64,000 nucleotides of DNA, taken from the NCBI GenBank assembly GCA_938006875.1, contig CALLMJ010000055.1, positions 918-64,917 on the forward strand, read 5' to 3'. A program made the translations under genes and the position numbers. Below are positions 2-43,906 of this stretch, piece after piece. The notes under the pieces were generated by a model, which searched no databases, was not told the origin of the DNA, and saw only the letters and a program-made list of their open reading frames with translations. The stretch comes from an uncultured Bacteroidia bacterium. GTDB lineage: Bacteria; Bacteroidota; Bacteroidia; J057; CALLMJ01. Every line of letters starts with the position of its first letter. Positions within the stretch are counted from its first letter, which is position 1.

Positions 2-3000
2 ATACAAGTAAAAAAAGAGTATGATATTTCATTTATATCCAATATTCAAGATGCAGGTGATTGTTATGAAATCGTAGAAAAACTAGGAGAAAATTATAAA
101 TTATCCACTTTAACGGTTGTACCAGAACAAGAATTAGACTACAGGGCAGAAGCCATTAAGATGCTTCGTAAAGCTAAAATGACAATAGTTTTCTTTAAGG
201 AAAGTTCTGATTGGGCTTTAGCATTTGTGAAACAAGTTTGGAAATTATCAGGTGGCGCTTCAAATAACACCCCAATATTACTAATTGGTGAAGATGAGCC
301 TAGAAGAAATCGATTTATAAGATTTAAAGCTCCCCAGTTGCTGCTTTCAGTATTAAAGAAAGATGAAATTTATTCCAAAATATTAGAAGTTTACAACAAA
401 GTAAGTGTTTCTGGTAAAATTATTGAAGAAACTTTTTCTCCTTACACTGGTTTAAGACCATTCAATGAAAATGAATCTATCTATTTCAAAGGAAGAGATA
501 AGCATATTGACTCTGTCATTCAAATGTTAGAGAGTAATAAGTATGTAATGGTTACGGGTGCTTCTGGCGACGGTAAATCCTCTTTGATTTATGCAGGTGT
601 AATTCCCAATGCAAAAGCTGGTTTTTTAAAAGGTTTATTTACAAAATGGACTGTCGTTGATTTTAAACCAGAAAGAACTCCTTTAAGAAATTTGGCTGCC
701 GCACTATCGCAAGGTTTAAGATTAAAAAATGTGGACGATGTAGAACTTCAGTTGGGATATGGTTTTTCTGCATTAGTGGATATTTATAAAAAATCTGATG
801 CCTATTGTGATATGACTTCTATAGAATGGGCTGATGCAGATGAAGAAACTCGTCGTTCTATGAAAAGAAAGGCATCAAATCTTTTAATTCTTGTTGACCA
901 ATCTGAAGAGTTTTTTACTAATTCAGAAAATTATAGAGATGGTGTAGCTTCTCCTGTATCTCAAATTACTATTAATGTTTTACAGGAGACCATTAAATTA
1001 GCAAGAGAAGAACAACTTCCTATTTATGTGGTTTTTACTATGCGTTCCGATTATATTGGTCAATGTGTTGCATTTAGAGGATTTGCTGAACTAATTGGGA
1101 ATTCTACTTACTTTGTTCCAAGATTAAAACGTGAAGAAATTCAAGAAGTAATCCAAGCTCCAGCTATATTAAATGGCGATAAAATTTCTTTAAGATTAAC
1201 TCAAAGGATTTTGAATGATTTGGGTGATGGAATTGACCAATTGCCTGTTCTACAGCATGCATTGTATCAGATGTGGAAAGAAGCTAATTACAAAAAAGAA
1301 GAAATTGATATTATTCATTATGCTAAAGTAGGTGGTATTGCTATTAACAAACTTCCCGCATCAATTCAACCAGAGTTTGAAATTTTTCTTAATCATTTAC
1401 CTGAAGAAAAAAAGTATCTTTTTGAAAAACCTCGCTTAAGAAACGTTCTTAGTAAACATGCTAATGAACTTTTTGAAACCGCTCATGAAATTTACAATCA
1501 AAGATACCAAGATAATATTTCTAAAGAACAAGCTCAAAGAATAATTAAAATTACTTTTACATGTTTGACCAAAATTGATGAAAACCGTGCGGTCAGAAAT
1601 CGTATGAGTTTAATGGAAATTTACGCAATTTATGGTTCCAATGAAATTACTATGGAAAAATTTGTTAAAGTAATTAACATTTTCCGTGAAACAGGCAATT
1701 CTTTTATTCAACCATTTATTACCGATGATGAGGCATCTAAAGAACTTTCTCCTGATACAGTTCTAGATATTACCCATGAATCATTAATTAGAAACTGGGA
1801 TTTACTCGTTGAATGGGCAGAAGAAGAACATAAATCGGTTTCAATTTTCCGTGATTTTAAGGTACAAGTTAATCAATGGCTAGAAAATGAAAAAGACCCC
1901 AAATATCTACTAAATTCTGGTCTTTATACTTATTTTAGTAATTGGTGGGAAAAAGCTAGTCCAAATGCTTCTTGGATTTTGAGATACATGAATCCAGAGG
2001 AAATCAATCCTATTATGGAGCCTGCTGAACAAGCTGAAATTTACCATGAAGACTGTGAAGAATTTTTATTTTTATCAAAACAAAAAATTGATAGAAATAG
2101 GAGATTAGTTTTATTTGCTATTTCTTTGATTTCTACACTTTTGGTTGTATCTTTAATTGCTGCTTGGATGGCATTACAGTCTAAGTATGAAGCTGACCAA
2201 CAACGTGAAATTGCTATTGAAAAATCAGAATATGCAGAAATACAAAGAGATTTAGCTATAAAAAAAGAAAAAGAGGCTGAATTTCAAAGAATGGTAACAG
2301 AAACAGAAAAATTAAAAGCTGAAACTCAAGCTATTATTGCAGAAAATCAGAAAAAAATTGCGGAAGGAGAAAAAATCAAAGCTGAGGAGCAACGTAAAAT
2401 TGCAGAAAACCAGAAAAAAATTGCAGAAAATGAGCGTAAAATAGCTGAGCAACAAAGAAAAATTGCAGAAGAAAACGAAAAAGAAGCTAAAAAACAAACT
2501 AAAATTGCAGAAGAAAAAACCAAATTAGCTCTTGAAAAAGAAGAAGAAGCAAGAAAACAAGCTGAAATTGCTAAAAAACAACGTAATAATGCACTAATTA
2601 CCCAGTCTTTATTCTTGGCTTCTCAAGCTGAACAACAAGTTGATGAAAATAGACCCGATATTGGTATTTTATTAGCAAGAGAAGCCTTACCCAAAAATTT
2701 AGAGGATCCGGATAGACCTTATGTTGAAGAAGCTGAAGCGGCTTTATACTATTCCATCAATAAAATTGCTAACAAAGACCCTTTATTAACTTTAAATGGT
2801 CATAAAAATAAAATGATTTATAATTTGTTTTCTCCTGATGGAAAGCGTTTAGTATCAACTTCTTGGGATAAAACTGCACGTTTATGGGATGTTGAAACAG
2901 GTCGTCAATTGGGTATTTTACAGGGTCATAATCATATTGTTGAAGCGGCTAAATTTTCAAAAGATGGTAAAACGCTTGCGACTCTTGCTGATGACTTTAC

Positions 3001-4186
3001 TGCTCGCTTATGGGACTTCCAAAGATTTAATTTGGTGGCTGTTTTTAGAGGTCATAAAAATACTTTAACCTCCGTGGATATTAGTAACGATGGCAAAAAG
3101 GTTGCTACATCTTCTATTGACAAAACTGCCAGAATTTGGGACTCTGCTTCTGGTGATGTCCAATTTATTTTAGAAGGTCATACAGGGCATGTACTTTACA
3201 CTGCATTTAGTAATAATTCAGACTTATTAATTACTACCTCCGCAGACTCTACCTCTAAATTATGGGATGTGAAATCAGGTAAACTGATAAATACATTAGT
3301 TGGGCATCAAGGTGCCGTAAAGTACGCAACATTTAGCCCTGATGATAAGTACATTGCTACGGTCTCAAAAGATTTTACTTGTAGATTATGGGACGGTAAA
3401 ACGGGTAAATTTATTAAAACTTTTAAAGGGCATTTAGATGTCGTAAACCATGTAGCTTTTAGTCATAATGGTGCTTTAATTGTTACTTCTAGTAAAGATT
3501 CTACTGCAAAAGTTTGGAATGTTGCAAGCGGTGAACAAGTTGGAAATTTAAAAGGTCATTTAGATAATGTTTATAAGGCATCATTTAGTCCTGATGATAA
3601 AAGAATTGTAACTAATTCAGATGATAAATCTGCAAGACTTTGGGATGGTAAATCCTTTTTAAGGTTAGCAGTATTTAAGGGTTCTCCTGGGCTTGGCTAT
3701 GCTTGTGCTTTTAGTCCTGATTCAAAAAGAATGGCTATGGCAGGTCCTCATTTTTCTATTGAAATTTATAGAATATTTCCTAACCTTCAAGAATTAATTG
3801 ATTACTCTGAAAATTTTGCTAATCGTCCTTTAACTGATGAAGAGAAAAAACGTTTCTTTGTTTCGGATTTTAGAGTTCGTAAGGAAATAGTAGATGAAAT
3901 TAAAAAGAATGAAAACTACCAAAACAATTTAGATAAATTCGACCTTAAAAATGCACCTCAAAATATTGAATTAAACGAAAAAAAAGAAATTAAACCTAAT
4001 GAAAATAAAAATTCTTCAACATCTGATGTGAAAACGAATATAAAACCTTCTTTTTATACTGTAAGACCTAATCAGACTTTGTCTGAAATTGCAAAAAAAT
4101 TTAACGTTACTGAACAATACTTAATGCAAATTAATAATTTGGATAATCCTAAAATTGAAGCTGGGCAAATTTTAAAAATTAAGTAA
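2..4186 (+). CDS. STAND (nSTAND/NACHT-like) P-loop NTPase with TIR-like N-terminus, one TM helix, coiled coil, WD40 propeller and C-terminal LysM; 5' end lies outside the window
   Basis: Frame 2 has no stop from nt 2 to the ATG at 161, so the gene starts upstream of the window. The read-through N-terminus (KEYDISFIS...AKMTIVFFKESSDWA...PILLIGEDEP) has an alternating beta/alpha, TIR-like pattern. NTPase motifs: PYTGLRPF...YFKGRD, Walker A GASGDGKS (557-580), Walker B LILVDQSEEFF. Hydrophobic helix LVLFAISLISTLLVVSLIAAWMAL (2105-2176). K/E/Q coiled coil (about 2185-2610). Eight GH...(L/I)WD units (2798-3777). LysM YTVRPNQTLSEIAKKF...GQILKIK (4055-4183). Confidence 0.8.
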   Translation: MQVKKEYDISFISNIQDAGDCYEIVEKLGENYKLSTLTVVPEQELDYRAEAIKMLRKAKMTIVFFKESSDWALAFVKQVWKLSGGASNNTPILLIGEDEPRRNRFIRFKAPQLLLSVLKKDEIYSKILEVYNKVSVSGKIIEETFSPYTGLRPFNENESIYFKGRDKHIDSVIQMLESNKYVMVTGASGDGKSSLIYAGVIPNAKAGFLKGLFTKWTVVDFKPERTPLRNLAAALSQGLRLKNVDDVELQLGYGFSALVDIYKKSDAYCDMTSIEWADADEETRRSMKRKASNLLILVDQSEEFFTNSENYRDGVASPVSQITINVLQETIKLAREEQLPIYVVFTMRSDYIGQCVAFRGFAELIGNSTYFVPRLKREEIQEVIQAPAILNGDKISLRLTQRILNDLGDGIDQLPVLQHALYQMWKEANYKKEEIDIIHYAKVGGIAINKLPASIQPEFEIFLNHLPEEKKYLFEKPRLRNVLSKHANELFETAHEIYNQRYQDNISKEQAQRIIKITFTCLTKIDENRAVRNRMSLMEIYAIYGSNEITMEKFVKVINIFRETGNSFIQPFITDDEASKELSPDTVLDITHESLIRNWDLLVEWAEEEHKSVSIFRDFKVQVNQWLENEKDPKYLLNSGLYTYFSNWWEKASPNASWILRYMNPEEINPIMEPAEQAEIYHEDCEEFLFLSKQKIDRNRRLVLFAISLISTLLVVSLIAAWMALQSKYEADQQREIAIEKSEYAEIQRDLAIKKEKEAEFQRMVTETEKLKAETQAIIAENQKKIAEGEKIKAEEQRKIAENQKKIAENERKIAEQQRKIAEENEKEAKKQTKIAEEKTKLALEKEEEARKQAEIAKKQRNNALITQSLFLASQAEQQVDENRPDIGILLAREALPKNLEDPDRPYVEEAEAALYYSINKIANKDPLLTLNGHKNKMIYNLFSPDGKRLVSTSWDKTARLWDVETGRQLGILQGHNHIVEAAKFSKDGKTLATLADDFTARLWDFQRFNLVAVFRGHKNTLTSVDISNDGKKVATSSIDKTARIWDSASGDVQFILEGHTGHVLYTAFSNNSDLLITTSADSTSKLWDVKSGKLINTLVGHQGAVKYATFSPDDKYIATVSKDFTCRLWDGKTGKFIKTFKGHLDVVNHVAFSHNGALIVTSSKDSTAKVWNVASGEQVGNLKGHLDNVYKASFSPDDKRIVTNSDDKSARLWDGKSFLRLAVFKGSPGLGYACAFSPDSKRMAMAGPHFSIEIYRIFPNLQELIDYSENFANRPLTDEEKKRFFVSDFRVRKEIVDEIKKNENYQNNLDKFDLKNAPQNIELNEKKEIKPNENKNSSTSDVKTNIKPSFYTVRPNQTLSEIAKKFNVTEQYLMQINNLDNPKIEAGQILKIK

Positions 4187-5327: not shown

Positions 5328-5891
5328 TTAATCCTCAAATTCTGGAAGTGAGTTCTCTTCTGGCAATGCTGAAGCAAATGCTATATAGAAAATCAAAACA
5401 AATCCACCTGAAACAAAAAGTAAAGAAACAGCGATAAGCCTTAAAATCCATGCTGGAATTCCTGTATATTTAGCCATACCTCCAAAAACACCAAATATCA
5501 TTCTATCAGTTTTTGATCGAGCAACTTGTTTCATTGTAGGTTTTCTTAAGCCTTGTGAAAGACTTTTTTGGAATTTTTGTAATCTTTTTTTTATAGATTT
5601 ATCTGGTTGATGGTTTAAAGATTGTAAAAAAAGCGGAATTGATATTGCTAATCCTATAATTAATGGGACCAAACTAATTTCTTGAAAGAAAATGGAGATT
5701 ACTCCAACAGTCATCATGATAGTTCCCATTGTTAATAGAAAATTGGATTGCTTGGTGACAAATTTTTTGTTATTATAATCAGCAGAATGAGCCTCCAAAA
5801 CTAAGTCTTTTGCATCAGAAAATTCATTTTGTGGATTGTTAATATTTAAATTATCAAAGAATGAATTAGATAAAAACTGATGCTCAGTCAT
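5328..5891 (-). CDS. PspC-domain membrane protein
   Basis: C-terminal RSKTDRMIFGVFGGMAKYTGIPAWILRLIAV is a PspC-type domain, followed by a TM segment. I moved the start to Met21 (ATG at 5891) because the longer track ORF runs through the tRNA gene. Confidence 0.65.
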   Translation of the reverse strand: MTEHQFLSNSFFDNLNINNPQNEFSDAKDLVLEAHSADYNNKKFVTKQSNFLLTMGTIMMTVGVISIFFQEISLVPLIIGLAISIPLFLQSLNHQPDKSIKKRLQKFQKSLSQGLRKPTMKQVARSKTDRMIFGVFGGMAKYTGIPAWILRLIAVSLLFVSGGFVLIFYIAFASALPEENSLPEFED

Positions 5892-5909
5892 AGATATAAG
5901 AATTTTTAG

Positions 5910-5983
5910 TGGAGCATAACGGATTCGAACCGATGACCTCTTCAATGCCATTGAAGCGCTCTAGCCAACTGAGCTAATGCCCC
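5910..5983 (-). tRNA. tRNA-Ala (anticodon GGC)
   Basis: The reverse complement GGGGCATTAGCTCAGTTGGCTAGAGCGCTTCAATGGCATTGAAGAGGTCATCGGTTCGAATCCGTTATGCTCCA folds as a cloverleaf. It has a 7-bp acceptor stem with the G3:U70 alanine identity pair, anticodon loop AT-GGC-AT and a GGTTCGAATCC T-arm. CCA is not encoded. Confidence 0.9.
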
Positions 5984-6028
5984 TAACAATTATGCAAATA
6001 TAATAAAATTATAATTTCAAATAATTTA

Positions 6029-7006
6029 TTATGAACTTTTTTTCATTTTTCTATCAAAACTAAAGTTTCTAGAAAGACAAAAACTAAATTTTAGTTGTCT
6101 TTTTGCCCATGAATCAGTTGTGGTAGTATAAAAATTATTTTCTAAAATAGCGCTATTGTTAGCAAAAAATAAAGTAAATATATGACCACCTGTTTCTACT
6201 TCATATCCAATAGCAAGAGGATTTTTTAATTCAGGATGATTACGATAAAATGGATGAAAATTATAATAATAATCAGCAATAATTGCCATTCTGTCAGTAA
6301 ATTTAAATCGGAATGCGCCCCCTAAAATGAAATAATTATTACTATCCCACTTTTGGTTATTTGGATTTTGTTTTTGAACTATAAAATTTCTGTGAAACCA
6401 TGTAGGCATCAATTGCAAAGATAATTTATTAGTAAATTTTGAAGCAATCAATAATTGGTTGAAATAGTTAATTCTATGGCTCTCGCGAGTTTTAAAGTCT
6501 TTGTTTTGGACTTCTGAATATAAACGATTGGTATTCATTGCTGAGTATCCTAAACTACTCAATAAAGAAATAGAAATAGGCACTTTGAAATCTTTAGTTT
6601 GACGTAATAGAGCATATTTAACAGACAAATCTATCATTTCTTTCATTCTACTTCTTCCAATACCTACGCTTAAATTATCTAAAATACCATAATCGAATGC
6701 AATTCTTATATCACTAGCATTATCTAAACCAAAAGCAGTATGAGCGATTTGATTAAAGCTTGTTTGTGAATTGGTAATATTACCAAAACGGTGTAAAATC
6801 CTATATTCTAAATGATTTTTTTTGATGGTTTCTGTTGTCTGTGTATTGGCCAGTCTAATGCTTTTCCAAGTAGCGGTTACCAATTCTTTGGATTGAGTTT
6901 GATTAGAGTCTAGTGAAAGCAAATTCAATAGTTCCTCTTGTGAAAAAGCAAACTGATATATAAAAAATAATATAAATAACAAAAATTTACTGTGGCATTC
7001 CATCAT
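6029..7006 (-). CDS. predicted outer-membrane beta-barrel protein (DUF5777-like)
   Basis: N-terminal signal peptide (FLLFILFFIYQFAFSQ). Alternating hydrophobic/aromatic beta-strand pattern throughout. 20-nt overlap with the upstream cytochrome gene. The family name is from memory, not a search. Confidence 0.45.
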   Translation of the reverse strand: MMECHSKFLLFILFFIYQFAFSQEELLNLLSLDSNQTQSKELVTATWKSIRLANTQTTETIKKNHLEYRILHRFGNITNSQTSFNQIAHTAFGLDNASDIRIAFDYGILDNLSVGIGRSRMKEMIDLSVKYALLRQTKDFKVPISISLLSSLGYSAMNTNRLYSEVQNKDFKTRESHRINYFNQLLIASKFTNKLSLQLMPTWFHRNFIVQKQNPNNQKWDSNNYFILGGAFRFKFTDRMAIIADYYYNFHPFYRNHPELKNPLAIGYEVETGGHIFTLFFANNSAILENNFYTTTTDSWAKRQLKFSFCLSRNFSFDRKMKKSS

Positions 7007-7613
7007 GAATCCATTTTTTAATTGTTAAAATTTCACAATTGGGAATTTTAGGTGCAAAAAGAGGCATTTTTGAGTATCCAGGTAGCCAATCAATTGCTCC
7101 TATTAGATGCCCAGAATTTACCGATGCTTTTACATCATCATAATTATCTAAATTCCAACCTCCAGAAGTATTATTTCTATTGTGGCAACCAGTGCAATGT
7201 GAATCTAAAATATTTTTTATATCACTATAAAAAAAAGTTTTATTGGTATCACATAAATTGATATTCGAACAGCTGGTATTTTTAGCACCAAATTGAATCC
7301 AACTTTTTATGGTTAATTTTTCTTTGTCGGTGAGAGCAAGAGAATTTTTAGGAGGCATCTTACCAAATTTGATTTGAAGCCATAATTCAGAGGAATTAAT
7401 TTGATTAGGTTTAATTGCTTGCATTACTCCTTCGTAATTAGTAAAATCATAACCTTCTTTTTTATCAGTAGGATTATGGCAACCTGAATTGCCACATTTA
7501 TTCACTAAAATCGGTAAAACTTTTTGTTCAAAACAATTATCAGGAAGATACTGGTCGTTTCTACAGCCTATCAAAAAAAGAAAAGTAAGAAATATCGGCA
7601 CTAAAAATCTCAT
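6987..7613 (-). CDS. lipoprotein with two class-I-like c-type haem-binding modules
   Basis: Lipobox FLFLIGC. Two similar modules, ILVNKCGNSGCHNP...GKMPP (a CX4CH variant, 7476-7496) and ILDSHCTGCHNR...SKMP (CXXCH, 7182-7196). Each has a downstream Met-Pro that could supply the axial ligand. Confidence 0.55.
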   Translation of the reverse strand: MRFLVPIFLTFLFLIGCRNDQYLPDNCFEQKVLPILVNKCGNSGCHNPTDKKEGYDFTNYEGVMQAIKPNQINSSELWLQIKFGKMPPKNSLALTDKEKLTIKSWIQFGAKNTSCSNINLCDTNKTFFYSDIKNILDSHCTGCHNRNNTSGGWNLDNYDDVKASVNSGHLIGAIDWLPGYSKMPLFAPKIPNCEILTIKKWIHDGMPQ

Positions 7614-8422
7614 GGATTTACATAAATTTTTTGATAATGAATGTTTTGATTTTTTGTTTTTATTTGAACTAAATAAAATCCAGTAGTTAATAATTCATTA
7701 ATCGTTACTTTATATTTGCCATTTAGATTTTGAAATGTATTGGAATAGGATTTTCCAGTAATATCAAAAATTAATAAATTTTGAATTTGTTCATGGGTTT
7801 GAATGAAAAACTCATTTTTTACAGGATTAGGATAAATAATAAAATTTTGTTTATCAATGAATTTTGAATTTGAGCTAGTTGTTGATGAAGTTAAGGTCAA
7901 TGAAGTGTTAGTAGGGCTATCCCCTGATGTGCTTCCATTATTATTGACTGCATTTGCACCCACATAAATAGTTGCAGCACCTGAATCAGGAGATGTCCAG
8001 TCAAATTCAAAAGTTGCTGAACCTGAACCTGTTTTAATAGAATTGTGAGTGGCATTTTTTCTCTGTCCTAAATTTACTAATTGAACTCCTGAACCTGGAT
8101 TAGAAATAGTTCCTGCATTGGTATTAGATGAATTTAAGATTTCACATGCAAAACCATAGCCATTCAAATTAGGGTTAGAAACCACTATTTGCATTCTATA
8201 TAAAGTATTGGGTTGATATTCAGTATTATTCATGGGTGGAATTGATTGTATAACTACATTTGTTGAACCAGAACCACCTGAATGACAATTTGCACAAGTG
8301 CCTAATGAGCCGGGTGAACCTGTATAACCTGCTTTTCCTCCTGAATTTAATACAGAAAAACCCATTAAAAAAACAAAAAGCAAAGAAATAAATACAATTT
8401 TATTATACACTGAAAGTTTCAT
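7610..8422 (-). CDS. secreted T9SS (type A CTD) cargo with one CXXCH motif
   Basis: Signal peptide. GTCANCHSGGSGS (CANCH at 8282-8296). C-terminal IIYPNPVKNEFFIQ...GFYLVQIKTKNQNIHYQKIYV is a typical Por/T9SS sorting domain. 4-nt overlap with the next gene. Confidence 0.55.
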   Translation of the reverse strand: MKLSVYNKIVFISLLFVFLMGFSVLNSGGKAGYTGSPGSLGTCANCHSGGSGSTNVVIQSIPPMNNTEYQPNTLYRMQIVVSNPNLNGYGFACEILNSSNTNAGTISNPGSGVQLVNLGQRKNATHNSIKTGSGSATFEFDWTSPDSGAATIYVGANAVNNNGSTSGDSPTNTSLTLTSSTTSSNSKFIDKQNFIIYPNPVKNEFFIQTHEQIQNLLIFDITGKSYSNTFQNLNGKYKVTINELLTTGFYLVQIKTKNQNIHYQKIYVNP

Positions 8423-8475
8423 AACTGAATTATAATGACAAAATTATGGAAAAAATTTTAAAATTTATAAAAAAA

Positions 8476-9072
8476 CTAAAAAATAATACATAGCCAAGAA
8501 CCATCATCTTGTTTTTCATACTCAATTTCCACCTCTTCTAACTCATAACCTAAAAAATCTTTTACAAAATCTTCCACAGATTGTTTATTTTGAGTGAAAT
8601 AATAATAACCTCTAAATTCTAATTCTGCTTGTAAAAAATATTCAGAACCATTATTTAGTTGAGCTTGTATTGTACAAGGAATTTGGTTGGTTTCAATTTC
8701 ATACTCTTCAAATGAAATAGAAATTATATCAGAAACCTGTTCTGCTAAATCTCCTTCATAATTAACCAAATCTAGTAGTTCATCTTCTTCCTCTTCTAAG
8801 ATGGTATTACTTATTTCTTCAATATTATAACCCTCAGGAATAATAATATCATTAAAAGCCTCAAAAATTTCGTCATCGGATTCTACTTGTGCTTCTACAG
8901 TCCATGCTATTTGTTCATATTCATTTTCAACAAATATTCCAATTATGTAAGCATCTGAGATATTATATTCATTTTCACCAATTTTTAAAAAGGAAACAAC
9001 TGTTTGGTGTTTTTCGTGATTAGAGTCTGGGTTTTCAAACTCTTCATTGTCATTAACTATTCTTATAGGCAT
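8476..9072 (-). CDS. hypothetical, extremely acidic cytoplasmic protein
   Basis: 198-aa ORF, co-directional with its neighbours, with no signal peptide or TM segment. Very rich in E and D (EEEEDELLDL, EEVEIEYEKQDD). No motif recognised. Confidence 0.5.
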   Translation of the reverse strand: MPIRIVNDNEEFENPDSNHEKHQTVVSFLKIGENEYNISDAYIIGIFVENEYEQIAWTVEAQVESDDEIFEAFNDIIIPEGYNIEEISNTILEEEEDELLDLVNYEGDLAEQVSDIISISFEEYEIETNQIPCTIQAQLNNGSEYFLQAELEFRGYYYFTQNKQSVEDFVKDFLGYELEEVEIEYEKQDDGSWLCIIF

Positions 9073-9139
9073 GAGAAATAAATTTACAAATTTAAGAATT
9101 CATTTTGAATAAAAAACAATTTTGAGATTTAGATTTTTT

Positions 9140-11473
9140 TTAGAGAATTGCAATTTTTTGAATATTAGTATTTTTCCCTTGTTCATCTGAAATGAGGATT
9201 AAATAAATGCCGGGTTCTACTTTTTTTCCGAGAATATCTCTTCTATCCCAAATGGCTTGACCTCCTAGCGAACGTAATTCTTTCACTAATCTACCATCTA
9301 TTGTAGTAATTTTAATTACGGAGTTGTTCACTACATTTCTAATAGTAACTTCACCATCAAATTCCCTTTTGACCGGATTAGGAAAAACAATCGCTTCATC
9401 AGCATTATCTTTACTAACAGTAGCATCACCCATATAACTCACTATTCCTTGGCTAGTAGCAAAAAATACTTCTCCCGTGTTAGGTTCTATGGTTATATCA
9501 TTGATAACATTAGAAATTAAGGGACTATTCGATTCATTAAAGTGAAGTAAAAGTTCTGTACCATCTTTATTGACTAAAAAGACACCGTTGTTAGTACCAA
9601 TCCATTTTCTATTGGCTCCATCAATGGCAATAGCTTTAACGGTTTCATCTCTCAATAAACAAAACCCTTCAATAATAGGACAGACGGCATCTGATAAATT
9701 GGTATTATCAAAAATATTGCCGGGATTATAAAAAACATTAATACCTTTATTGGTTCCAACCCAAATATTACCCGTCAAATCTTTTGCCATAGAAAATACA
9801 TAATCACTAGAAATATTTCCTCTACCAAAACCAGTGCCTATAAAGCGAACTCTATCATCATTGGGGTTATCGGGGGTGTTTTTGTCATTAAAAACATAAA
9901 TGCCATGTCCGTCTACTAAAATCCATTTTTGATTAAAATCATCAATAATCAATTCAGAAATTTTGGTTTGATTTCCAAAGAGAGATTGAGGGAAAGTAAA
10001 CCAACGGTTGTCAGTGGTCAGAACTGCTAAGGGTCTAGAAGCCAAATAAGTAGTAAACCAAGTATTTCCATTTTTATCTTTCGCAATACCAGATACACGT
10101 ATATCAGTATAACCATCATTGGTTAAGGTTGTGCCCACCAAACCTGTATTATCGTTATAAAAGGCACCCGTTAATTTGCCATTTTTTAAAGTGGAATAAC
10201 CTTGCCCCCAAGAACCCATATAAGCTGTTCTATCAGATGGGTCATAAAAAGCTACACAAATATCTCTGTTCCCTCTGAGAGTATCTAAACCCCCATTAAA
10301 ACGATTTAAGATTTTCCATTTCCTTTCCGTTAAATCCATGTAATAAACACCATCATTTGAATATTTAGGGATTTTGGCATCTCCATAACCCACTGGAGCA
10401 ACGTAAAGCTCGTTAGGACCAGCCACTATTTGATTACAGTAATTATTCGGTGGAGATTCTGGGGTAATAAAAAAAACATTCCATTCATTTAATAACAATA
10501 AACCTTGATTAGCATCTACTTGAACCACAAAATATAAATCTTCAGTGGAATGGGTTGCTACGACGGCGTCCCCATATCTTTCTCCATGTAATGTATCATT
10601 AACATATATATATGCGTTACCAGAAGTTTCCCCTGAAATAGTAGATTGAGTGGAAACATGTAGTTTATTTCTATCTCCCTTTATTCTAGTAATTTTTTTT
10701 ATAGCAAATTTTGCGCTGTCTAATTTGAAATATTGACCATTCTCCTCATAAAAAATTACATTACTCAGGGATATGTAGAGCCTCTGGTTTCCATTTTCAC
10801 TTTTTGTGATTTCTATACCATTTATTTTTGAACTCGGAATTTGATTTACTAATTGCCATGCAGAAGGGTCAGCCAAATTAGGGTGATTTTCATCAGCAAA
10901 GTAAAGACCGTTCGCCATGCCTACAAAAATTTTTCCATTATAAAAATCTATACTAAAAACGGGCAAATTAGAATTATTTTGAGCAATTTTGGTGTAAGTA
11001 AAACGTGTTTCTAGCTTTTTTAAATCATAAACCACAATTCCAAAATCTGTACAAATGTACATTCTTCCATTTTTAAATTTCATTTGGTAAATGGTTTTAC
11101 TTAAATAATTACGGTTAAGAAATATATCACGAATAGACCATATTTTTTTTTCAGGATTTTGGAAAAAATCAATGATTCCACTTTTGTAACCTATAAAAAC
11201 ATAATCCGTTTCAGGGTCATGAGCTATGCAACTGGGTTGAATGTCTGAAAGACCCTTGGTTTTCGTGTATTCTTTTATAGACCATTCATTCATATCAAAT
11301 TGCACTAACCCCGAAGTTGTTACCATAAATACATCATTTCTTCTCACCAATCCATCAACACCTGTTTTAATACTTAAATAAGAAGTCCATCTTCCTAATT
11401 GATTGGACTGTTGAGCTTTAGCAAGAAATAAGGTAAAATTTATAATAGCAAAAAATTGCAAAAGTCTAAACAT
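9140..11473 (-). CDS. beta-propeller (two-component-regulator-propeller type) protein with T9SS CTD; PorZ-like
   Basis: Signal peptide. Repeated G...WIGT/WFTT/WVGTNKG propeller-blade motifs. C-terminal VFPNPVKREFDGEVTI...GIYLILISDEQGKNTNIQKIAIL sorting domain. Size (777 aa) and architecture resemble PorZ. Confidence 0.6.
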   Translation of the reverse strand: MFRLLQFFAIINFTLFLAKAQQSNQLGRWTSYLSIKTGVDGLVRRNDVFMVTTSGLVQFDMNEWSIKEYTKTKGLSDIQPSCIAHDPETDYVFIGYKSGIIDFFQNPEKKIWSIRDIFLNRNYLSKTIYQMKFKNGRMYICTDFGIVVYDLKKLETRFTYTKIAQNNSNLPVFSIDFYNGKIFVGMANGLYFADENHPNLADPSAWQLVNQIPSSKINGIEITKSENGNQRLYISLSNVIFYEENGQYFKLDSAKFAIKKITRIKGDRNKLHVSTQSTISGETSGNAYIYVNDTLHGERYGDAVVATHSTEDLYFVVQVDANQGLLLLNEWNVFFITPESPPNNYCNQIVAGPNELYVAPVGYGDAKIPKYSNDGVYYMDLTERKWKILNRFNGGLDTLRGNRDICVAFYDPSDRTAYMGSWGQGYSTLKNGKLTGAFYNDNTGLVGTTLTNDGYTDIRVSGIAKDKNGNTWFTTYLASRPLAVLTTDNRWFTFPQSLFGNQTKISELIIDDFNQKWILVDGHGIYVFNDKNTPDNPNDDRVRFIGTGFGRGNISSDYVFSMAKDLTGNIWVGTNKGINVFYNPGNIFDNTNLSDAVCPIIEGFCLLRDETVKAIAIDGANRKWIGTNNGVFLVNKDGTELLLHFNESNSPLISNVINDITIEPNTGEVFFATSQGIVSYMGDATVSKDNADEAIVFPNPVKREFDGEVTIRNVVNNSVIKITTIDGRLVKELRSLGGQAIWDRRDILGKKVEPGIYLILISDEQGKNTNIQKIAIL

Positions 11474-11542: not shown

Positions 11543-12685
11543 TTATTTACTGAGGAAAATGTAATATAGACCTACAGAAAATCTAAATTCTTGGTGTTTG
11601 GCTTCTAATTTTGAAATATTATTTAAAGCATATTGAGCATTCATTCTAAGCATAAATTGTTGATAATGTGATTGAAATGAAATACTTAATTGCGATCTTG
11701 TGGTTTTAAGTTCTTGTTTTTGTTCTTCATTTAAGAAAAAATATTCATAAACGAAGCCTGCAGCAAAAGACTGTCTATTCCATTGTAATCCAGTTTCTAA
11801 CGGGAAATGAAATGCCAATGGTTGTGATTTTTTATTATTCAAACTCAAATGACTTCCATAACTTATTTGTGGTAAAGTTTGTGCAAAAAGCAATGGACCA
11901 AATGGATATTGCATAAAACTGGAAATCCACTGTCTGAAATATAAATCTTCTTTTTGTGTATATTTACTTCCAAAAACTCCACCACCTAAACCGAAACTCC
12001 AATTCTTTTCAAAATAATTTTTTTTCTGATTTTTTTGAAGTTCTTTATTTATGAAAATTAATTCCTGTTTGCTTTCTAAGGCAATTAAATTTTTAGTATT
12101 AATCCATTCTAATTTTTTATTTAACTCATCAGCATTTTTAATGGGTATATAATTTTGAGCTTCTTTTTTTAAAGCTTTGTATATCAAAATAGTACGGCTA
12201 ATTGCTGATACTTTTTCACTTAATATTTGCAACTGGGCAGAACGTTTACGTTTATTAGGTTCACTATTAAATTGAATATGATTTTTCTGAGTATTGTTGC
12301 TAAATTTATTTTTAATTGTGTAATAATAATTTTCAACCTTTTGATTTTTAATTTTTTGATTAGTAATTTGTTGCTTTTTATGAGCAGTTTTATTATCCTC
12401 AAATGGATTTTCATAAGTAATATTTTCAAAAGTTTTTAAACTACCGGCCTTTTGAACAATATTAATTTTATGTTCAGGTTTATAAAAATGATATCCAAGA
12501 GTTATAAATAAGAGAATTAAAGCCAAGATTCCCATACCCCAAAACCAAAAGGAATTGTTTTTTTTGTGTTTTTGTGGAAGTTGTTTTTGGAGTTGTTCCC
12601 AGTATTTATCATCATAAGGGAACTCAAATTCCTCCACTTTTGATTTTAGAAATTTTACCCATTCATTATCATTCATGTAACTCAT
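11543..12685 (-). CDS. membrane protein in the anti-sigma position (one TM helix, low-complexity linker, beta-rich C-terminus)
   Basis: ATGA overlap with the upstream ECF sigma gene. Short cytoplasmic N-terminus, TM helix FWFWGMGILALILLFITLGYHFY, then an N/K/Q low-complexity region. The role is inferred from position only. Confidence 0.45.
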   Translation of the reverse strand: MSYMNDNEWVKFLKSKVEEFEFPYDDKYWEQLQKQLPQKHKKNNSFWFWGMGILALILLFITLGYHFYKPEHKINIVQKAGSLKTFENITYENPFEDNKTAHKKQQITNQKIKNQKVENYYYTIKNKFSNNTQKNHIQFNSEPNKRKRSAQLQILSEKVSAISRTILIYKALKKEAQNYIPIKNADELNKKLEWINTKNLIALESKQELIFINKELQKNQKKNYFEKNWSFGLGGGVFGSKYTQKEDLYFRQWISSFMQYPFGPLLFAQTLPQISYGSHLSLNNKKSQPLAFHFPLETGLQWNRQSFAAGFVYEYFFLNEEQKQELKTTRSQLSISFQSHYQQFMLRMNAQYALNNISKLEAKHQEFRFSVGLYYIFLSK

Positions 12686-13242
12686 ATGGCTTCTAAGTTA
12701 AAAAAAAAGGTTTTTAATTGTATTTTGAGCATATTTTTTACTTTATGTAAGTGCCACCTAGAATTTTCTTCTGAGATGCCTAATGTTTCGGCGATTTCTT
12801 TATGTGTAAACCCTTCAAAAACATGTAAGTTAAGAATGGTTTTACCCGGTTCAGGCAAATTTTGCAATAAATCCATAATTTCTTGGCTGGTTAATTCTTG
12901 ATTGGTAAAAGCATCTAAATGCTGATCTTTTAAAATATTTTCGTAATTATCTAAACATTCCATTCTTTTTCTCCATGATTTATCATTGTTTAAGTCATTT
13001 AGCACACTGTTTACAGTAATTTTTTTAGCCCAAGCATCAAAAGAAAATTCTGAATTATACAGTGGTAGTTTTTCTATAATCCTAAGAAAAGCATTATTCA
13101 AATAAATAACAGCATCATCTTTGCAAGTAGCATAACGATAGCATATTTTCATTAAAGGAGAAAATAAAAGTTTGTATAACTGATTAATCTTTTGTTGATT
13201 GCCAGCAATACATTCTTTTATGATTTCATTAGGAATATTCAT
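12682..13242 (-). CDS. RNA polymerase sigma-70 family ECF sigma factor
   Basis: Region 2-like segment (CYRYATCKDDAV...FLRIIEKL) and a region 4 HTH (FEGFTHKEIAETLGISEENSRWHLHKVKNMLK). Size is typical at 186 aa. Confidence 0.8.
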   Translation of the reverse strand: MNIPNEIIKECIAGNQQKINQLYKLLFSPLMKICYRYATCKDDAVIYLNNAFLRIIEKLPLYNSEFSFDAWAKKITVNSVLNDLNNDKSWRKRMECLDNYENILKDQHLDAFTNQELTSQEIMDLLQNLPEPGKTILNLHVFEGFTHKEIAETLGISEENSRWHLHKVKNMLKIQLKTFFFNLEAI

Positions 13243-13410: not shown

Positions 13411-15513
13411 ATGTTGAGAGCTTTAAAAAATCTTATCGCTGGTGTAGATGTAGATGAAATGAGATTACTTTCCATTATCGCTGAAAAAACAGATAATGCA
13501 GTAATTATTACTGATGAAAACGGTTTAATAATTTGGGCAAACCAAGCTTTTACGGATTTAACAGGATATACATTAGAAGAAGTAAAAAGGAAAAAACCTG
13601 GTCACGTGCTTCAAGGTAAAGATACAGACCCTGCAACGGTTCAACGTATTCGAGAATATATAGCAAGAAAACAATCGTTCAGAGAAAATATATTGAACTA
13701 TGACAAAGAGGGTACTCCTTACTGGATTCAACTTAACGTAACTCCTGTTTTCAACGATTTGGGTATCCTTACAAATTTTATTGCCTTTGAATTAGATGTT
13801 ACCGATGAAGTTAATAGACAGAAAGAATTAGAGCAAGCTAAAATACAAATTGAACAGCAACTTTCTCAAATTCAAGCTTATAATCAAGCTATCAATATTC
13901 GTTTGGGTTTTATGGAAATTGGTTTGGATAATAAAATAATTCAAATCAATGATAAATTAGCCAATCTTTTAGGTTATTCAAATCAAGAACTAATTGGTAA
14001 AAAACACAGAGATTTAGTAGGAAACTTGAAAACTGATGAGCAATATAAAAGGGATTGGGAAGAATTACTCAGAGAAGGTAAATTTGAAGGTGAAATTCAA
14101 CGATATAAGAAGAATGGTGAAGTAGTTTGGTTACAAGCTATATACATGGTTGTAAAAGATACTAAAACACAACAACCCAAATCTATAATAAAATTAGCGA
14201 TTGATATAACGGAAAAAAAACTTCAGGAAAAGGATTTATATGAAAAAAATCAAGAACTTTTAGCTTCCAAAGAAGAATTAAGAATGGCACAAGAAGAATT
14301 AAATGCCATTAATGAAGATTTAAAATCCAAAGCAGATGAATTAGAATCTAACTTAAAAGCTTTACAAAATGCTCAAGAGCAACTTCGTTCTCTTTCTTTA
14401 GTTGCTTCTAATACAGATAATGCTGTTATTATTACCAATGCAAACCAAGAAATTGAGTGGGTTAACCCTGGTTTCACGAGAATTTCTGGTTATACTTTAG
14501 AGGAAGTAAAAGGAAAAATTCCAGGTAGGATTCTTCAAGGTAAAGATACAGACCCTCAAACGGTTCAAAGGATACGTGAAAAACTTTTATTGAAAACGTC
14601 TTTTCAAGAAGAAATTCTTAACTATTCAAAAGATGGTCGTCCTTACTGGTTAAGTTTAAGCATCACACCTATTTTAAATGAAGTGGGAGATGTAAGTAAA
14701 TTTATAGCTATTGAAATGGACGTCACCGAAAAAAAAGAAAAAGAAAAGCTAATCAATGAAAGAAATAAAGATTTTGAGAATAGTTTGAAATATGCAAAAA
14801 CTATTCAAAAAGCTTTGCTTCCTGATTCTGATGTATTAAAAACTTATTGTAATGATTATTTCATTTATTTCCAACCCAAAGATGAAATTGGAGGGGATTT
14901 TTATTGGTTCCAAAAATATCAAGAGGTTTTATATGTAGTTACTGCTGATTGTACAGGGCATGGAGTACCTGGTGCATTGTTATCTATGTACTTCCAACAA
15001 TATTTGAATACGCTTGCAATTCAATATGCTCATGCTACATTAGACGAAAAATTAAAGGCTCTGCAAGAAGGTATTCTTAAACTTCAAAATGATCAAGGTA
15101 TTCAAGATGCTTTTGAAATGAGCATGGCAATGATCGATAAAGAAAAAATACATTTATTTACAACTTCCGCTCAACCTATCATCATTCAAAAATCTGATAA
15201 TCAAATAGAAATTTTAAAATCTGATAATTATCTTGGTAAACATCCCTTAAAGAATGGAAACTATTCATTGGATTTTTTTGTTATTTATAAAGTTCAAGTT
15301 AAAAGATTGTTCTTAATGTCTGATGGTATGATTGACCAATTCGGTGGACCCGATAATAAAAAGTTTGGGCTCACAAGATTAAAATCCTTATTAGCTACAA
15401 ACATTGAAAATAACCTCTCTCAAACCATCAAAGAATTAAAGTTTTCTTTAAATACTTGGTTCAATGGTCAAGAACAAACCGACGACTTTTTAATGATTGG
15501 ATTGGATTTATAA
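13411..15513 (+). CDS. LOV-like PAS / PAS / coiled coil / LOV-like PAS / PP2C (SpoIIE, RsbU-type) phosphatase, paralog 1
   Basis: PAS1 and PAS3 carry ...GYTLEEVK..PG(H/R)(V/I)LQGKDTDP.TVQRIRE...ILNY.K(E/D)G.PYW...(E/M)(L/M)DVT. The C-terminus has GGDFYWF...TADCTGHGVPGALLSM...MSDGMIDQFGG...EQTDDFLMIG, which are PP2C/SpoIIE motifs. Confidence 0.8.
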   Translation: MLRALKNLIAGVDVDEMRLLSIIAEKTDNAVIITDENGLIIWANQAFTDLTGYTLEEVKRKKPGHVLQGKDTDPATVQRIREYIARKQSFRENILNYDKEGTPYWIQLNVTPVFNDLGILTNFIAFELDVTDEVNRQKELEQAKIQIEQQLSQIQAYNQAINIRLGFMEIGLDNKIIQINDKLANLLGYSNQELIGKKHRDLVGNLKTDEQYKRDWEELLREGKFEGEIQRYKKNGEVVWLQAIYMVVKDTKTQQPKSIIKLAIDITEKKLQEKDLYEKNQELLASKEELRMAQEELNAINEDLKSKADELESNLKALQNAQEQLRSLSLVASNTDNAVIITNANQEIEWVNPGFTRISGYTLEEVKGKIPGRILQGKDTDPQTVQRIREKLLLKTSFQEEILNYSKDGRPYWLSLSITPILNEVGDVSKFIAIEMDVTEKKEKEKLINERNKDFENSLKYAKTIQKALLPDSDVLKTYCNDYFIYFQPKDEIGGDFYWFQKYQEVLYVVTADCTGHGVPGALLSMYFQQYLNTLAIQYAHATLDEKLKALQEGILKLQNDQGIQDAFEMSMAMIDKEKIHLFTTSAQPIIIQKSDNQIEILKSDNYLGKHPLKNGNYSLDFFVIYKVQVKRLFLMSDGMIDQFGGPDNKKFGLTRLKSLLATNIENNLSQTIKELKFSLNTWFNGQEQTDDFLMIGLDL

Positions 15514-15659: not shown

Positions 15660-17750
15660 ATGCTAAAAGCCTTTAAAAATTTTTTTTATACTAATAATAA
15701 CCACATCCATGTCAATGAAGAAAAATTATTTTCCATTATAATTGAAAAATCGGACAATGTGGTTATTATAACTGATGCTAACGGAATGATAATTTCGGTT
15801 AATCAGGCTTTTACCGATTTAACTGGTTTTAGTTTTGATGAAATAAAAGGCAATAAATTTTGGAATTTATTACAAAACCAAGCTACAGATATTGATGCAT
15901 TAGGAAGTATTCTTGAAAAGCTGACCCGAAAAGAATCCTTTAGAGAGATAGTTTTGAATTATGATAAAGAAGGGATCCCTTATTGGATGCAAATCAATGT
16001 AAATCCTGTACTGGATGACAAAGGAGAACTTTCAAATTTTGTTATTTTAGGTTTAGATGTTACTGAGCAGATAATCAACCAACAAAAATTTGAACACCAA
16101 CTTGCTCAATTACAAGCCTATAATGAAGCCATCAATATGCGTATGGGTTTTATTGAATTTGATTTGAATAGGAATATTTTGCAAGTAAATGAAAAGTTAG
16201 CTACTTTATTAGGATATACGCCTCAAGATTTGCTTGGAAAAAACCATAGAGAATTAGTAGGGGACTTGATGACGGACGAATCGTATGAAGGTTTCTGGAA
16301 TACGCTAATAAAGGAAGGTAAAGCCGAAGGTGAATTTCAAAGAAAACATAGAAATGGGCAAATAATATGGCTACAAGCAGTTTATATGTTAGTGAAAGAT
16401 ATAAATCACCAACCTAAATCGGTAATCAAATTAGCGATTGATATTACAGAACGCAAAAAGCAAGAACAAGAACTCTATGAAAAAAATGAAGAGCTTTTAG
16501 CTTCTGATGAAGAATTGAGAATGGCTCAAGAAGAGCTTAATGTTATTAATGAAGATTTAAAACTTAAAGCGGAAGCTTTAGAGAAAAGCTTAAAAAATAT
16601 TCGCACTGCGCAGGAACAACTTCGTTTACTTTCTATGGTTTCTACAAAAACGGACAATGCAGTAATCATTACCAATGCAAATAGAGAAATTGAGTGGGTA
16701 AATCCTGGTTTCACGAGAATTTCTGGTTATACTTTAGAAGAAGTAAAAGGGAAAGTTCCTGGTAGAATTCTTCAAGGTAAAGATACTGACCCTCAAACGG
16801 TTCAAAGAATACGTGAACAACTCCAATTAAAAACATCATTCCAAGAAGAAATTTTGGATTATAGAAAAGACGGTAAACCATACTGGATTAATCTCAATAT
16901 CACACCTATATTAAATGAATTAGGGGAAGTAGAGAAATATATTGCTATTGAAATGGATATTACCGAAAAAAAAGAAAAAGAAAAGCTAATCAACGAAAGA
17001 AATAAAGATTTGGAAGATAGTTTAAAATACGCCAAAACTATACAAAAAGCTTTGCTTCCTGATATGGGTATATTAAAAACTGGCTGTAAAGATTCATTCA
17101 TTTATTTCCAACCTAAAGAAGAAATTGGAGGAGATTTTTATTGGTTCAAGAAGAATGGAGAGGTTTTATACGTGGTTGCGGCAGACTGTACGGGGCATGG
17201 TGTCCCAGGTGCTTTACTATCTATTTACTTCCTGCAATATTTTAATAACATTACCACACAATATGCTAATGCAACATTCCATGAAAAATTGAATTCACTT
17301 CAAGAAGGGATTTTAAAACTTCAAAATGAACAAAGTATTCAAGATGCTTTTGAATTGAGTATGGCAATGATAGAAACTGACAGAATTCATTTATTTACTA
17401 CCACCGCTCAGCCCATTATTATTCAAAAAACTAACCATCAAATTGAAATCTTAAAATCTGATAACTATCTAGGAAAACATCCTTTAAGAAAAGAAAATAA
17501 ACCTTTTGAATTTTACGAATTTGATAAAAAAGAAATTCAAAGATTATTTCTTATGTCTGATGGAATTATAGACCAATTCGGTGGACCAGATAATAAAAAG
17601 TTTGGATTACCACGTTTAAAATCTATAATTACTGCTAATGTTGAAGAGAGTTTATCTCAAAGTTTTAAAGAAATAAAATTTTCTTTGAATACTTGGTTCA
17701 ATGGTCAAGAACAAACCGATGATTTTTTAATGATTGGATTGGATTTTTGA
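15660..17750 (+). CDS. PAS / PAS / coiled coil / LOV-like PAS / PP2C phosphatase, paralog 2 (tandem duplicate)
   Basis: Same architecture as the preceding gene. The C-terminal roughly 370 aa are near-identical (for example NPGFTRISGYTLEEVKGK.PGRILQGKDTDPQTVQRIRE), while the N-terminal PAS is much more diverged. Confidence 0.8.
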   Translation: MLKAFKNFFYTNNNHIHVNEEKLFSIIIEKSDNVVIITDANGMIISVNQAFTDLTGFSFDEIKGNKFWNLLQNQATDIDALGSILEKLTRKESFREIVLNYDKEGIPYWMQINVNPVLDDKGELSNFVILGLDVTEQIINQQKFEHQLAQLQAYNEAINMRMGFIEFDLNRNILQVNEKLATLLGYTPQDLLGKNHRELVGDLMTDESYEGFWNTLIKEGKAEGEFQRKHRNGQIIWLQAVYMLVKDINHQPKSVIKLAIDITERKKQEQELYEKNEELLASDEELRMAQEELNVINEDLKLKAEALEKSLKNIRTAQEQLRLLSMVSTKTDNAVIITNANREIEWVNPGFTRISGYTLEEVKGKVPGRILQGKDTDPQTVQRIREQLQLKTSFQEEILDYRKDGKPYWINLNITPILNELGEVEKYIAIEMDITEKKEKEKLINERNKDLEDSLKYAKTIQKALLPDMGILKTGCKDSFIYFQPKEEIGGDFYWFKKNGEVLYVVAADCTGHGVPGALLSIYFLQYFNNITTQYANATFHEKLNSLQEGILKLQNEQSIQDAFELSMAMIETDRIHLFTTTAQPIIIQKTNHQIEILKSDNYLGKHPLRKENKPFEFYEFDKKEIQRLFLMSDGIIDQFGGPDNKKFGLPRLKSIITANVEESLSQSFKEIKFSLNTWFNGQEQTDDFLMIGLDF

Positions 17751-34780: not shown

Positions 34781-34973
34781 TGGACAAACGAATTTACGGG
34801 TATATTCCAATTTCACTTTAAAATTAACTGCAAACTTAAATAATTTACTTTTAATGATACAAAAATTTTTCAAAAAATTTTTAAACAATTTTTATAAAGA
34901 CCAATCTTTATGCGATTTTGGCAATTATTTTTTTACTTATTCTCAAAAAAATACATTTAGCATAATCATTCGT

Positions 34974-43804: not shown

Positions 43805-43831
43805 TAATTAATAATTTTTTTGAAAATACCA

Positions 43832-43870
43832 AAAAGACTGTCTAGATATTGGCAGTCTTTTTTGTTTTTT
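43832..43870 (+). terminator. intrinsic terminator after the TPR gene
   Basis: AAAAGACTGTC / GGCAGTCTTTT is an 11-bp stem with one G:U pair and an 8-nt loop, followed by TTTTGTTTTTT. Confidence 0.75.
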
Positions 43871-43892: not shown

Positions 43893-43906
43893 CAAAAAAA
43901 ATCTTT

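Follow-up and report, generated by a model that had tools for sequence, protein, structure and literature searches.

The nSTAND1 family was defined as a clade of STAND NTPases from bacterial conflict systems (Kaur, Burroughs, Iyer, Aravind, eLife 2021). The main text of that paper is silent on a membrane helix or the topology of these proteins; its Figure 2-source data 1 lists the combination "nSTAND1+TM" (TM, transmembrane) 412 times and "nSTAND1+TM+BetaPropeller" 278 times. The same source data contain "TIR+nSTAND1+TM+BetaPropeller" 16 times, including a 1414-aa (amino acid) protein from the Cytophagales, and "nSTAND1+BetaPropeller" lacking TM 427 times, while "LysM" does not occur in them. 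Here we describe a gene at the left edge of a 64,000-nucleotide stretch of DNA, below called the window, from contig CALLMJ010000055.1 of an uncultured Bacteroidia bacterium (assembly GCA_938006875.1). Judging from its sequence, the product is a membrane-spanning, receptor-like NTPase of the nSTAND1 family, the layout of which seems real but typical of the family, the novelty being limited to the version that bears LysM. Like the proteins listed with TIR, it belongs to PF20703 and has the order of TIR-class N-terminus, NTPase, one TM segment and propeller. Unlike anything in that catalogue, it carries a C-terminal LysM domain; a stalk of 20 heptads and a pair of N-terminal domains, denoted here D1 and D2, are not described there either. 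New here are the variant tethered by LysM, the heptad stalk of fixed length, the reading of D1-D2 as an adaptor, and the family-wide charge bias in support of the topology.

The second described case is a NACHT-type target of a diversity-generating retroelement (DGR), for which a periplasmic sensor with a lectin fold was predicted (Doré et al., bioRxiv 10.1101/2023.09.22.558884). The DGR targets with NACHT or nSTAND1 and C-type lectin (CLec) domains share with the window protein the STAND NTPase, TM segments and a predicted periplasmic sensor; unlike it, they end in a hypervariable, retroelement-diversified C-type lectin fold, whereas here the sensor is a conserved WD40 propeller with LysM and there is no DGR nearby. 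Apart from these two sources, our search yielded no literature on transmembrane STAND proteins with WD40 or LysM, and no experimental work on a membrane-spanning STAND protein was found, most subscription journals being outside the search; the first-pass annotation of the window likewise knew of no characterised example. The better known Avs (AVAST) and bNACHT proteins have an N-terminal effector or adaptor, a STAND NTPase and a C-terminal repeat sensor, and produce their output by oligomerisation. Those proteins, however, are soluble and their sensor meets phage proteins in the cytoplasm, whereas here the membrane parts the sensor from the NTPase. A further difference is that the window protein has neither a PADLOC match nor a defence-island context.

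The protein contains only one strongly hydrophobic segment, aa 702–724 (nt 2105–2173), with a 19-residue Kyte-Doolittle mean of 2.75, and the basic DRNRR precedes it. On a position-independent Hessa-type scale, the summed insertion energy of this helix is -3.1 kcal/mol versus +8.5 for the second-best segment of the protein. The helix was then surveyed in the top 120 full-length matches and the top 150 representatives from a search over 1.84 billion proteins, of which 227 were long enough. A single uncharged span of 19–26 aa is situated 512±23 aa past Walker A in 222 of the 227 relatives, with or without LysM. The relatives come from the Bacteroidia, Cytophagales, cyanobacteria, Gammaproteobacteria and Acidobacteria; WD40, divergent propellers or sequence without an assignment follow the helix in them. 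Two relatives (P0080 and P0086) have no TM helix. The flanks of the helix, taken as 15 aa on each side, contain on average 5.3 lysines and arginines upstream versus 3.0 downstream, with net charges of +4.3 and +0.6, respectively; the upstream flank is the more positive one in 198 proteins, and the opposite is seen in seven. LysM is found solely C-terminal to the helix, being present or absent within the clade on an otherwise identical chassis.

The LysM domain is a mostly extracytoplasmic, peptidoglycan-binding module, and the NTPase requires nucleotide, that is, the cytoplasm. Together with the positive-inside rule, these two considerations point to an N-in/C-out topology. This is a prediction, well supported in silico, and the protein probably crosses the inner membrane in this manner. 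The first-pass annotation had already recognised a single hydrophobic helix after DRNRR, and had argued from the positive-inside rule and LysM for an external WD40/LysM half; the family-wide bias speaks for the same, and the survey of orthologs proposed there shows the helix to be a conserved feature. The annotation went too far, however, in considering the architecture exceptional, as the helix occupies the same place in almost all surveyed relatives and the source data list the layout 278 times, and the version with TIR 16 times. A PA14 domain in one relative (P0068) was considered as a second extracytoplasmic marker and dropped, since the WD40 coverage leaves no space for it.

The reading frame, positions 2 to 4186 of the forward strand, is open over 1394 codons and truncated by the left window edge. 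The ATG at 161, although the earliest in frame, does not begin the gene, the true start being upstream of the window. Comparison with two full-length relatives (P0001 and L008) shows that 181 N-terminal residues, including D1, are absent from the window; the orthologs thus supplied the N-terminus that the first-pass annotation advised recovering. The closest full-length relatives are P0001 (1575 aa, 93% identity) and L008 (96%), locus L001 being likewise 93% identical, and full-length orthologs are 1500–1620 aa long. A Pfam scan of the product yielded three domain families, nSTAND1, WD40 and LysM, each above its threshold or with a strong E-value, as the profile search suggested in that annotation was meant to establish. 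In NCBI the orthologs are named "LysM peptidoglycan-binding domain-containing protein" or "nSTAND1 domain-containing NTPase". About 40 ortholog clusters share the D1-D2-nSTAND1-TM-stalk-WD40 chassis, and the complete architecture is retained in them at 40–96% identity and 100% coverage; hence it is not due to chance. The LysM clade is known solely from metagenome-assembled genomes of uncultured Bacteroidia. The features of the window copy, all on the forward strand, are as follows, the mean column identities being calculated over 36 orthologs.

14..421, forward: D2, the second N-terminal alpha/beta domain (aa 5–140), from an AlphaFold2 model, Foldseek and conservation; mean column identity 0.46.
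440..1900, forward: nSTAND1 NTPase module (aa 147–633), Pfam PF20703; the most conserved region, mean column identity of the core 0.69.
902..904, forward: serine codon TCT just past the Asp-Gln of Walker B, at a position that is phenylalanine (TTT) in the family, from comparison with 240 relatives.
1901..2104, forward: conserved helical juxtamembrane segment with the basic cluster KQKIDRNRR at its end; mean column identity 0.53.
2105..2173, forward: predicted single transmembrane helix LVLFAISLISTLLVVSLIAAWMA (aa 702–724), from hydropathy, insertion energy and family conservation.
2174..2617, forward: charged helical stalk of 148 aa and 20 heptads, from composition, heptad register and tandem repeats.
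2618..2776, forward: conserved pre-propeller linker (aa 873–925); mean column identity 0.56, above that of the propeller.
2777..3787, forward: WD40 beta-propeller (aa 926–1262) of seven canonical units and one degenerate closing unit, Pfam WD40 E 8.3e-65; mean column identity 0.45.
3788..4048, forward: low-complexity linker rich in N, K and E, poorly conserved, with mean column identity 0.28 and occupancy 0.72.
4049..4183, forward: C-terminal LysM domain, Pfam PF01476 E 1e-14, mean column identity 0.45; the stop codon TAA is at 4184–4186.

The nSTAND1 match covers aa 147–447 (E 1.8e-66, 225.7 bits at a cut-off of 27.1), and the C-terminal part of the PF20703 model is matched separately, up to approximately aa 633 (E 3.6e-10). 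The NTPase region alone matches 30,122 clusters at E<=1e-3. The hallmark order of the family, PYxGLxPF, then F(F/K)GR(D/E), then Walker A GxxGxGKS, is present as PYTGLRPF (nt 440–463), FKGRD (485–499) and GASGDGKS (557–580), followed by Walker B LILVDQSEE (884–910), so that the nSTAND-type NTPase of the first-pass annotation, identified by the same motifs, stands. The published nSTAND1 alignment shows a like pattern, PYVGLRPFR..FFGRDEQ..VGSSGSGKSS (Kaur et al., eLife 2021). In the hhhhDQFEE pattern of Walker B, the Asp-Gln and Glu-Glu pairs are kept, and the phenylalanine is replaced by serine in the window copy only: among 240 relatives this residue is F in 237 and M in three. The codon is TTT in both L008 and L001 and TCT in the window, that is, a T to C change. 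It could be an assembly error, or a genuine substitution that would weaken, and possibly inactivate, the NTPase.

The stalk that follows the helix is free of proline and consists of 20 uninterrupted heptads of the form E-x-x-x-K-[ILV]-A, in register from the membrane exit. The power at period 7 is 2.39 and that at period 3.5 is 0.44, hence "heptad-periodic helical stalk" is a safer description than "canonical coiled coil". The K/E coiled coil of about 140 aa proposed earlier is therefore retained as a charged helical region, not as a canonical coiled coil. As one continuous helix, the stalk would be about 22 nm long. The distance between the TM helix and the propeller is constant in the clade, 192–217 aa. 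At nt 2336–2517 the stalk contains imperfect tandem repeats of 21 and 63 nt that encode heptads of the KIAENQK type, which suggests that it expanded by repeat growth, though its overall length is constant among the orthologs. A homology of the stalk to TolA was considered and rejected: the NCBIfam TolA score is 13.5 bits with the cut-off of 59.45, the similarity is compositional, and no tolQR genes are situated beside the gene at any locus.

The WD40 region gives seven matched stretches in Pfam, and seven GH...WD units with a period of 42 are followed by one degenerate closing unit; of the eight units counted in the first-pass annotation, seven are thus canonical, and the eighth is present but degenerate. 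Conservation is moderate in every region of the protein, and the propeller is not hypervariable, its mean column identity being like that of the rest of the protein. The LysM domain, also recognised at the terminus in that annotation, takes up the final 43 aa (54.6 bits at a cut-off of 20.9), and the NCBIfam matches for the C-terminus are LysM regions of MltD and other proteins. Its presence follows the length of the tail after the propeller: tails of at least 90 residues have LysM, those of 25–47 residues have none.

The alignment of 17 ortholog N-termini and an AlphaFold model (pLDDT, the predicted local distance difference test, 86) show two alpha/beta domains ahead of the NTPase. The first of these, D1, is DUF4062/TIR-like and forms part of the 181-residue stretch that precedes the window. 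In two orthologs (P0006 and P0016), D1 passes the Pfam DUF4062 threshold of 24.7 bits, with 27.8 and 36 bits; in the Pfam scan, D1 of the 93% identical P0001 had no DUF4062 match, and D2 in the window had no DUF4062 or TIR match. The D1 profile has as its top match in the PDB the DUF4062 domain of KpSwz (E 4.4e-4), followed by bacterial TIR domains; a single-sequence PDB search with the N-terminus returned no match. DUF4062 is a TIR-like NADase with the catalytic glutamate E97 in KpSwz and E1008 in TEP1, and in human TEP1 and NWD1 it is fused ahead of NACHT-WD40 (bioRxiv 10.64898/2026.05.01.722283). In a gapless alignment of hidden Markov models, KpSwz E97 (chain position 82, SFTE) falls on the column after S102, occupied by L, H, I, Q, R, Y or W in all 17 orthologs; hence the NADase activity of D1 is doubtful. 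The DUF4062 proteins KpSwz/Swarozyc and human TEP1, NWD1 and NWD2 resemble the window family in having a DUF4062-like D1, and the order DUF4062-STAND-WD40 mirrors that of TEP1 and NWD1. Unlike them, the window family has no equivalent of E97, an additional D2, nSTAND1 instead of NACHT, a TM helix and LysM.

D2 (aa 5–140) is highly conserved and has the invariant motifs DWA, WK, GG.S and GEDEPRRNRF (nt 287–316). It has no match in Pfam, nor in the PDB by sequence or profile, and a protein search with the D2 profile returned one 101-aa fragment and missed known orthologs, hence it is uninformative. As Foldseek with the two-domain D1-D2 model was swamped by spurious matches (root-mean-square deviation 15–22 Å), D2 was modelled alone. 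The AlphaFold2 model (pLDDT 90.4, predicted template modelling score 0.86) is a five-stranded beta-alpha fold, and its best PDB neighbours in Foldseek are DNPH1/NDT, PdTIR, TcpB and AbTIR, with E from 2e-3 to 2e-2 and template modelling scores of 0.5–0.6. There is no glutamate at the TIR catalytic position, W+4 being F, Y, V, I or L. A profile comparison of D1 with D2 is not significant (probability 5.5%), and the two are therefore not presented as duplicates of each other. The TIR-class character of the N-terminus thus comes from the match of the D1 profile to KpSwz DUF4062 and bacterial TIRs, the fold match of D2 being weak. Of the TIR-like N-terminus proposed in the first-pass annotation, the sequence similarity holds for D1, upstream of the window; for the in-window D2, the model supports the term weakly and at the level of fold class only, not as a predicted NADase, and neither domain has the catalytic glutamate.

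More distant relatives show what D1-D2 may do. At two loci (L015 and L016), a 532-aa protein with TIR_2, D1 and D2 is encoded by a gene overlapping the start of two tandem nSTAND1-TM genes, and a TPR-S/MAP3K_TRAF_bd protein is encoded just 5' of it. The first 150 residues of the 532-aa protein are a canonical TIR_2 domain (E 3.6e-6), and the last 300 are homologous to D1-D2 (hhalign probability 100%, E 2e-58); the window D2 is 40% identical to its D2 in L015. The D1-D2 pair is therefore joined to nSTAND1-TM either by fusion or within an operon, and the separate version has a canonical TIR in front. From this comparison, the LysM clade appears to have lost, or never had, the canonical TIR ahead of D1-D2. 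Since the catalytic glutamate is missing from D1 and D2 and the relatives have a canonical TIR ahead of them, the pair would more probably serve as a scaffold, or as a previously unnamed adaptor that links TIR effectors to nSTAND1, than as the enzyme.

The region 4537–16868 of L015, and likewise L016, is a candidate five-gene conflict operon composed of TPR-S/MAP3K_TRAF_bd, TIR-D1-D2, two nSTAND1-TM genes and a gene for a 268-aa protein. In Pfam, the 750-aa regions after the helix in the two nSTAND1-TM proteins of about 1345 aa and the 268-aa protein have no match. Another arrangement is seen in a Cytophagaceae contig (L014), where four nSTAND1-TM-WD40 paralogs stand in tandem, a pattern typical of diversifying receptor families.

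The gene of the LysM clade, on the other hand, is single-copy, and its neighbours vary among genomes: pdxH and DUF1294 in the window and in L001; gyrB, a fusion of GH3 with beta-lactamase, and htpG in L002; and other genes in L004 and L006. In the window, the stop codon TAA shares one base with the ATG of the pdxH-like gene (junction TAATG), and no terminator-like site was found downstream of the STAND gene before pdxH. Comparison of the ortholog loci revealed no conserved operon partners, and no defence-island or mobile-element context was found, the neighbours being pdxH, DUF1294, PspC, gyrB, htpG, UvrD, ArgRS and similar. The PADLOC-DB scan of the protein matched no family, and tblastn of the window and the ortholog flanks found no canonical TIR in trans.

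The remaining window is ordinary chromosome, with UvrD, ArgRS, PorZ and cargo of the type IX secretion system (T9SS). The T9SS-type genes are situated at 9140–11473 (reverse strand), 43820–45751 (forward), 51194–54163 (forward) and 60111–63863 (reverse), and the set comprises a PorZ-like protein, a PhoD phosphatase bearing Por_Secre_tail, and two large proteins that carry CHU_C sorting domains, PKD repeats being present in one of the two; the signature confirms that the chromosome is from the Bacteroidota. A five-gene block at 5328–9072 (reverse) is inverted relative to 6571–10274 (forward) of L001, while pdxH and DUF1294 stay in place. Its genes, matched by order and size only, encode PspC-like, DUF5777-like and dihaem cytochrome-c-like proteins, a Por_Secre_tail protein and a 198-aa acidic protein. 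The GH3 (NagZ-like) fusion with a beta-lactamase fold, about 950–985 aa, is found at or near the STAND gene in L001 (10453–13407) and L002 (12524–15370); it may be an enzyme of cell-wall recycling, and the linkage is not kept in L004 or L006. Tandem paralogs of about 700 aa at 13411–15513 and 15660–17750 (forward) each have three PAS domains and a C-terminal SpoIIE/PP2C phosphatase, the first only having been scanned with Pfam. As judged by eye, the reverse strand encodes a small sigma-70/ECF-like protein at 12682–13242 and then, at 11543–12685, a 380-aa protein that has a single hydrophobic helix, the two being likely a sigma/anti-sigma pair with overlapping stop and start codons. Finally, a 706-aa protein at 32768–34888 (reverse) contains TPR, a PD40 beta-propeller, CarboxypepD_reg and OmpA, and hence is a second envelope protein with both a propeller and a peptidoglycan-binding domain.

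The following model may be suggested. The protein, from the nSTAND1 branch of STAND/NLR-like NTPases, would act as a receptor that crosses the inner membrane once, in the type II (N-in/C-out) orientation. Its cytoplasmic side would comprise the tandem TIR-class D1 and D2 and then the P-loop NTPase switch; the periplasmic side would be formed by the rigid 20-heptad stalk continuing from the membrane helix, the eight-unit WD40 propeller, the flexible linker and the LysM domain as a peptidoglycan tether. A periplasmic or cell-wall cue, possibly a protein to which the propeller binds or an alteration of the peptidoglycan holding LysM, would affect how the propeller and stalk pack or cluster. The signal would pass via the helix to the NTPase and, by analogy with other STAND proteins, lead to nucleotide-dependent oligomerisation that would gather the D1-D2 modules into an output platform. 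The single-pass plan, in which an ectodomain that is made of repeats or binds glycans lies outside the cytoplasm and a signalling domain inside it, resembles that of Toll-like receptors (TLRs), the plant LysM receptor kinases CERK1/LYK and the PASTA kinases PknB/PrkC. The cytoplasmic domain of TLRs is a TIR domain, and the LysM and PASTA domains read cell-wall glycans. Unlike these receptors, the window protein has a non-homologous signalling core, the type II orientation and a STAND NTPase engine, so the resemblance is an analogy only.

As a whole, a transmembrane conflict-type STAND receptor reading the periplasm or cell wall is the best explanation at hand, and we put about even confidence in it. 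The conflict or immune role is favoured by the TIR partners, TPR-S and paralog arrays in the family. Several observations weigh against it. The LysM-clade gene is single-copy, amid housekeeping genes and without conserved neighbours; PADLOC has no matching model; the propeller is as conserved as other regions; the window and the ortholog flanks encode no canonical TIR; by sequence, the DUF4062/TIR catalytic glutamate appears to be missing from D1 and D2 in all orthologs; and the window copy bears the serine at an almost invariant position next to Walker B. In addition, LysM does not mark the extracytoplasmic side without exception, as E. coli Kbp/YgaU is a cytoplasmic LysM protein. Finally, the membrane between the sensor and the NTPase precludes autoinhibition by fold-back, and hence the canonical STAND activation is inapplicable as such.

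With the same topology, the protein might instead have a housekeeping role: driven or gated by its NTPase, it would monitor or tether the envelope or peptidoglycan, and would report or adjust the state of the wall in growth or division rather than sense invaders. We consider such a role unlikely, and yet it is kept alive by the single-copy conservation, the housekeeping neighbours, the non-variable propeller, the absent catalytic glutamate and the lack of a PADLOC match. The single-copy orthologs retain every module over the 40–96% identity range, the neighbours are housekeeping genes that vary by genome, the gene overlaps pdxH by a single base and is not separated from it by a terminator, the length of the stalk is fixed, as would befit a spacer, and the genome encodes another propeller and peptidoglycan-binding envelope protein (PD40 and OmpA, see above). 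By analogy, the protein could be a one-polypeptide counterpart of TolA (an anchor with a long helical domain), TolB (a propeller) and Pal (wall binding): the inner-membrane anchor, the long charged periplasmic helical domain, the propeller and the peptidoglycan-binding module are alike. However, a TolQR partner and TolA domain III are both missing, WD40 is not a TolB-type propeller, LysM is not OmpA-like, and the TolA match of the stalk is compositional. Moreover, the nSTAND1 relatives in tandem arrays and with TIR/TPR-S partners are typical of conflict systems, no division or cell-wall genes are consistently adjacent, and the clade is limited to some uncultured Bacteroidia, unlike a core function.

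It is improbable that the helix is only a membrane anchor, or buried, with the WD40/LysM half in the cytoplasm, as in a conventional cytosolic STAND sensor, and with LysM binding, for example, muropeptides or precursors. The WD40 propellers of all characterised STAND proteins are generally known to be cytosolic, a cytoplasmic LysM protein, Kbp/YgaU, exists, and both the TM-less entries of the published catalogue and the two relatives without the helix, P0080 and P0086, fit such an arrangement. However, one uncharged span of 19–26 aa cannot bring the chain back to its starting side, the insertion energy strongly favours this segment and no other in the protein, the NTPase depends on cytoplasmic nucleotide, and the charge bias places it inside in 198 proteins versus seven. 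That the architecture is an artefact, be it of chimeric assembly, of two genes read through as one or of pseudogene decay, is scarcely credible in spite of the phenylalanine-to-serine change beside Walker B and a source that is probably metagenome-assembled, as all relatives are, since the frame is intact over its whole length and the same full-length architecture at 100% coverage occurs in dozens of independent assemblies (NCBI, JGI, ENA, Logan), which refutes a fusion or chimera.

Returning to the receptor reading, one may tentatively extend it to the large nSTAND1-TM-propeller branch with its thousands of clusters, the members of which would be transmembrane immune or surveillance receptors with periplasmic sensors signalling inward to TIR-class modules, in a hybrid of the TLR and NLR logic. 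The LysM clade would then be docked at the wall and detect its breach or a periplasmic invader protein. The importance of this is tempered by the architecture being already in published source data and by the computational nature of the present evidence. The LysM clade is the cleanest handle on the topology question, as it offers an independent compartment marker, a fixed stalk length and a conserved single-copy gene. To our knowledge, every STAND/NLR protein that is understood from experiments, whether from bacteria or eukaryotes, senses its ligand in the cytosol and is restrained by its own repeat domain. If the reading is true, activation in the transmembrane branch would involve no fold-back of the sensor onto the NTPase, a mechanism new to the STAND class. 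If the propeller is truly outside the inner membrane, activation would be relayed through a single helix, a mechanism undescribed for this class, and bacteria would own NLR-type switches that survey the periplasm or the cell wall.

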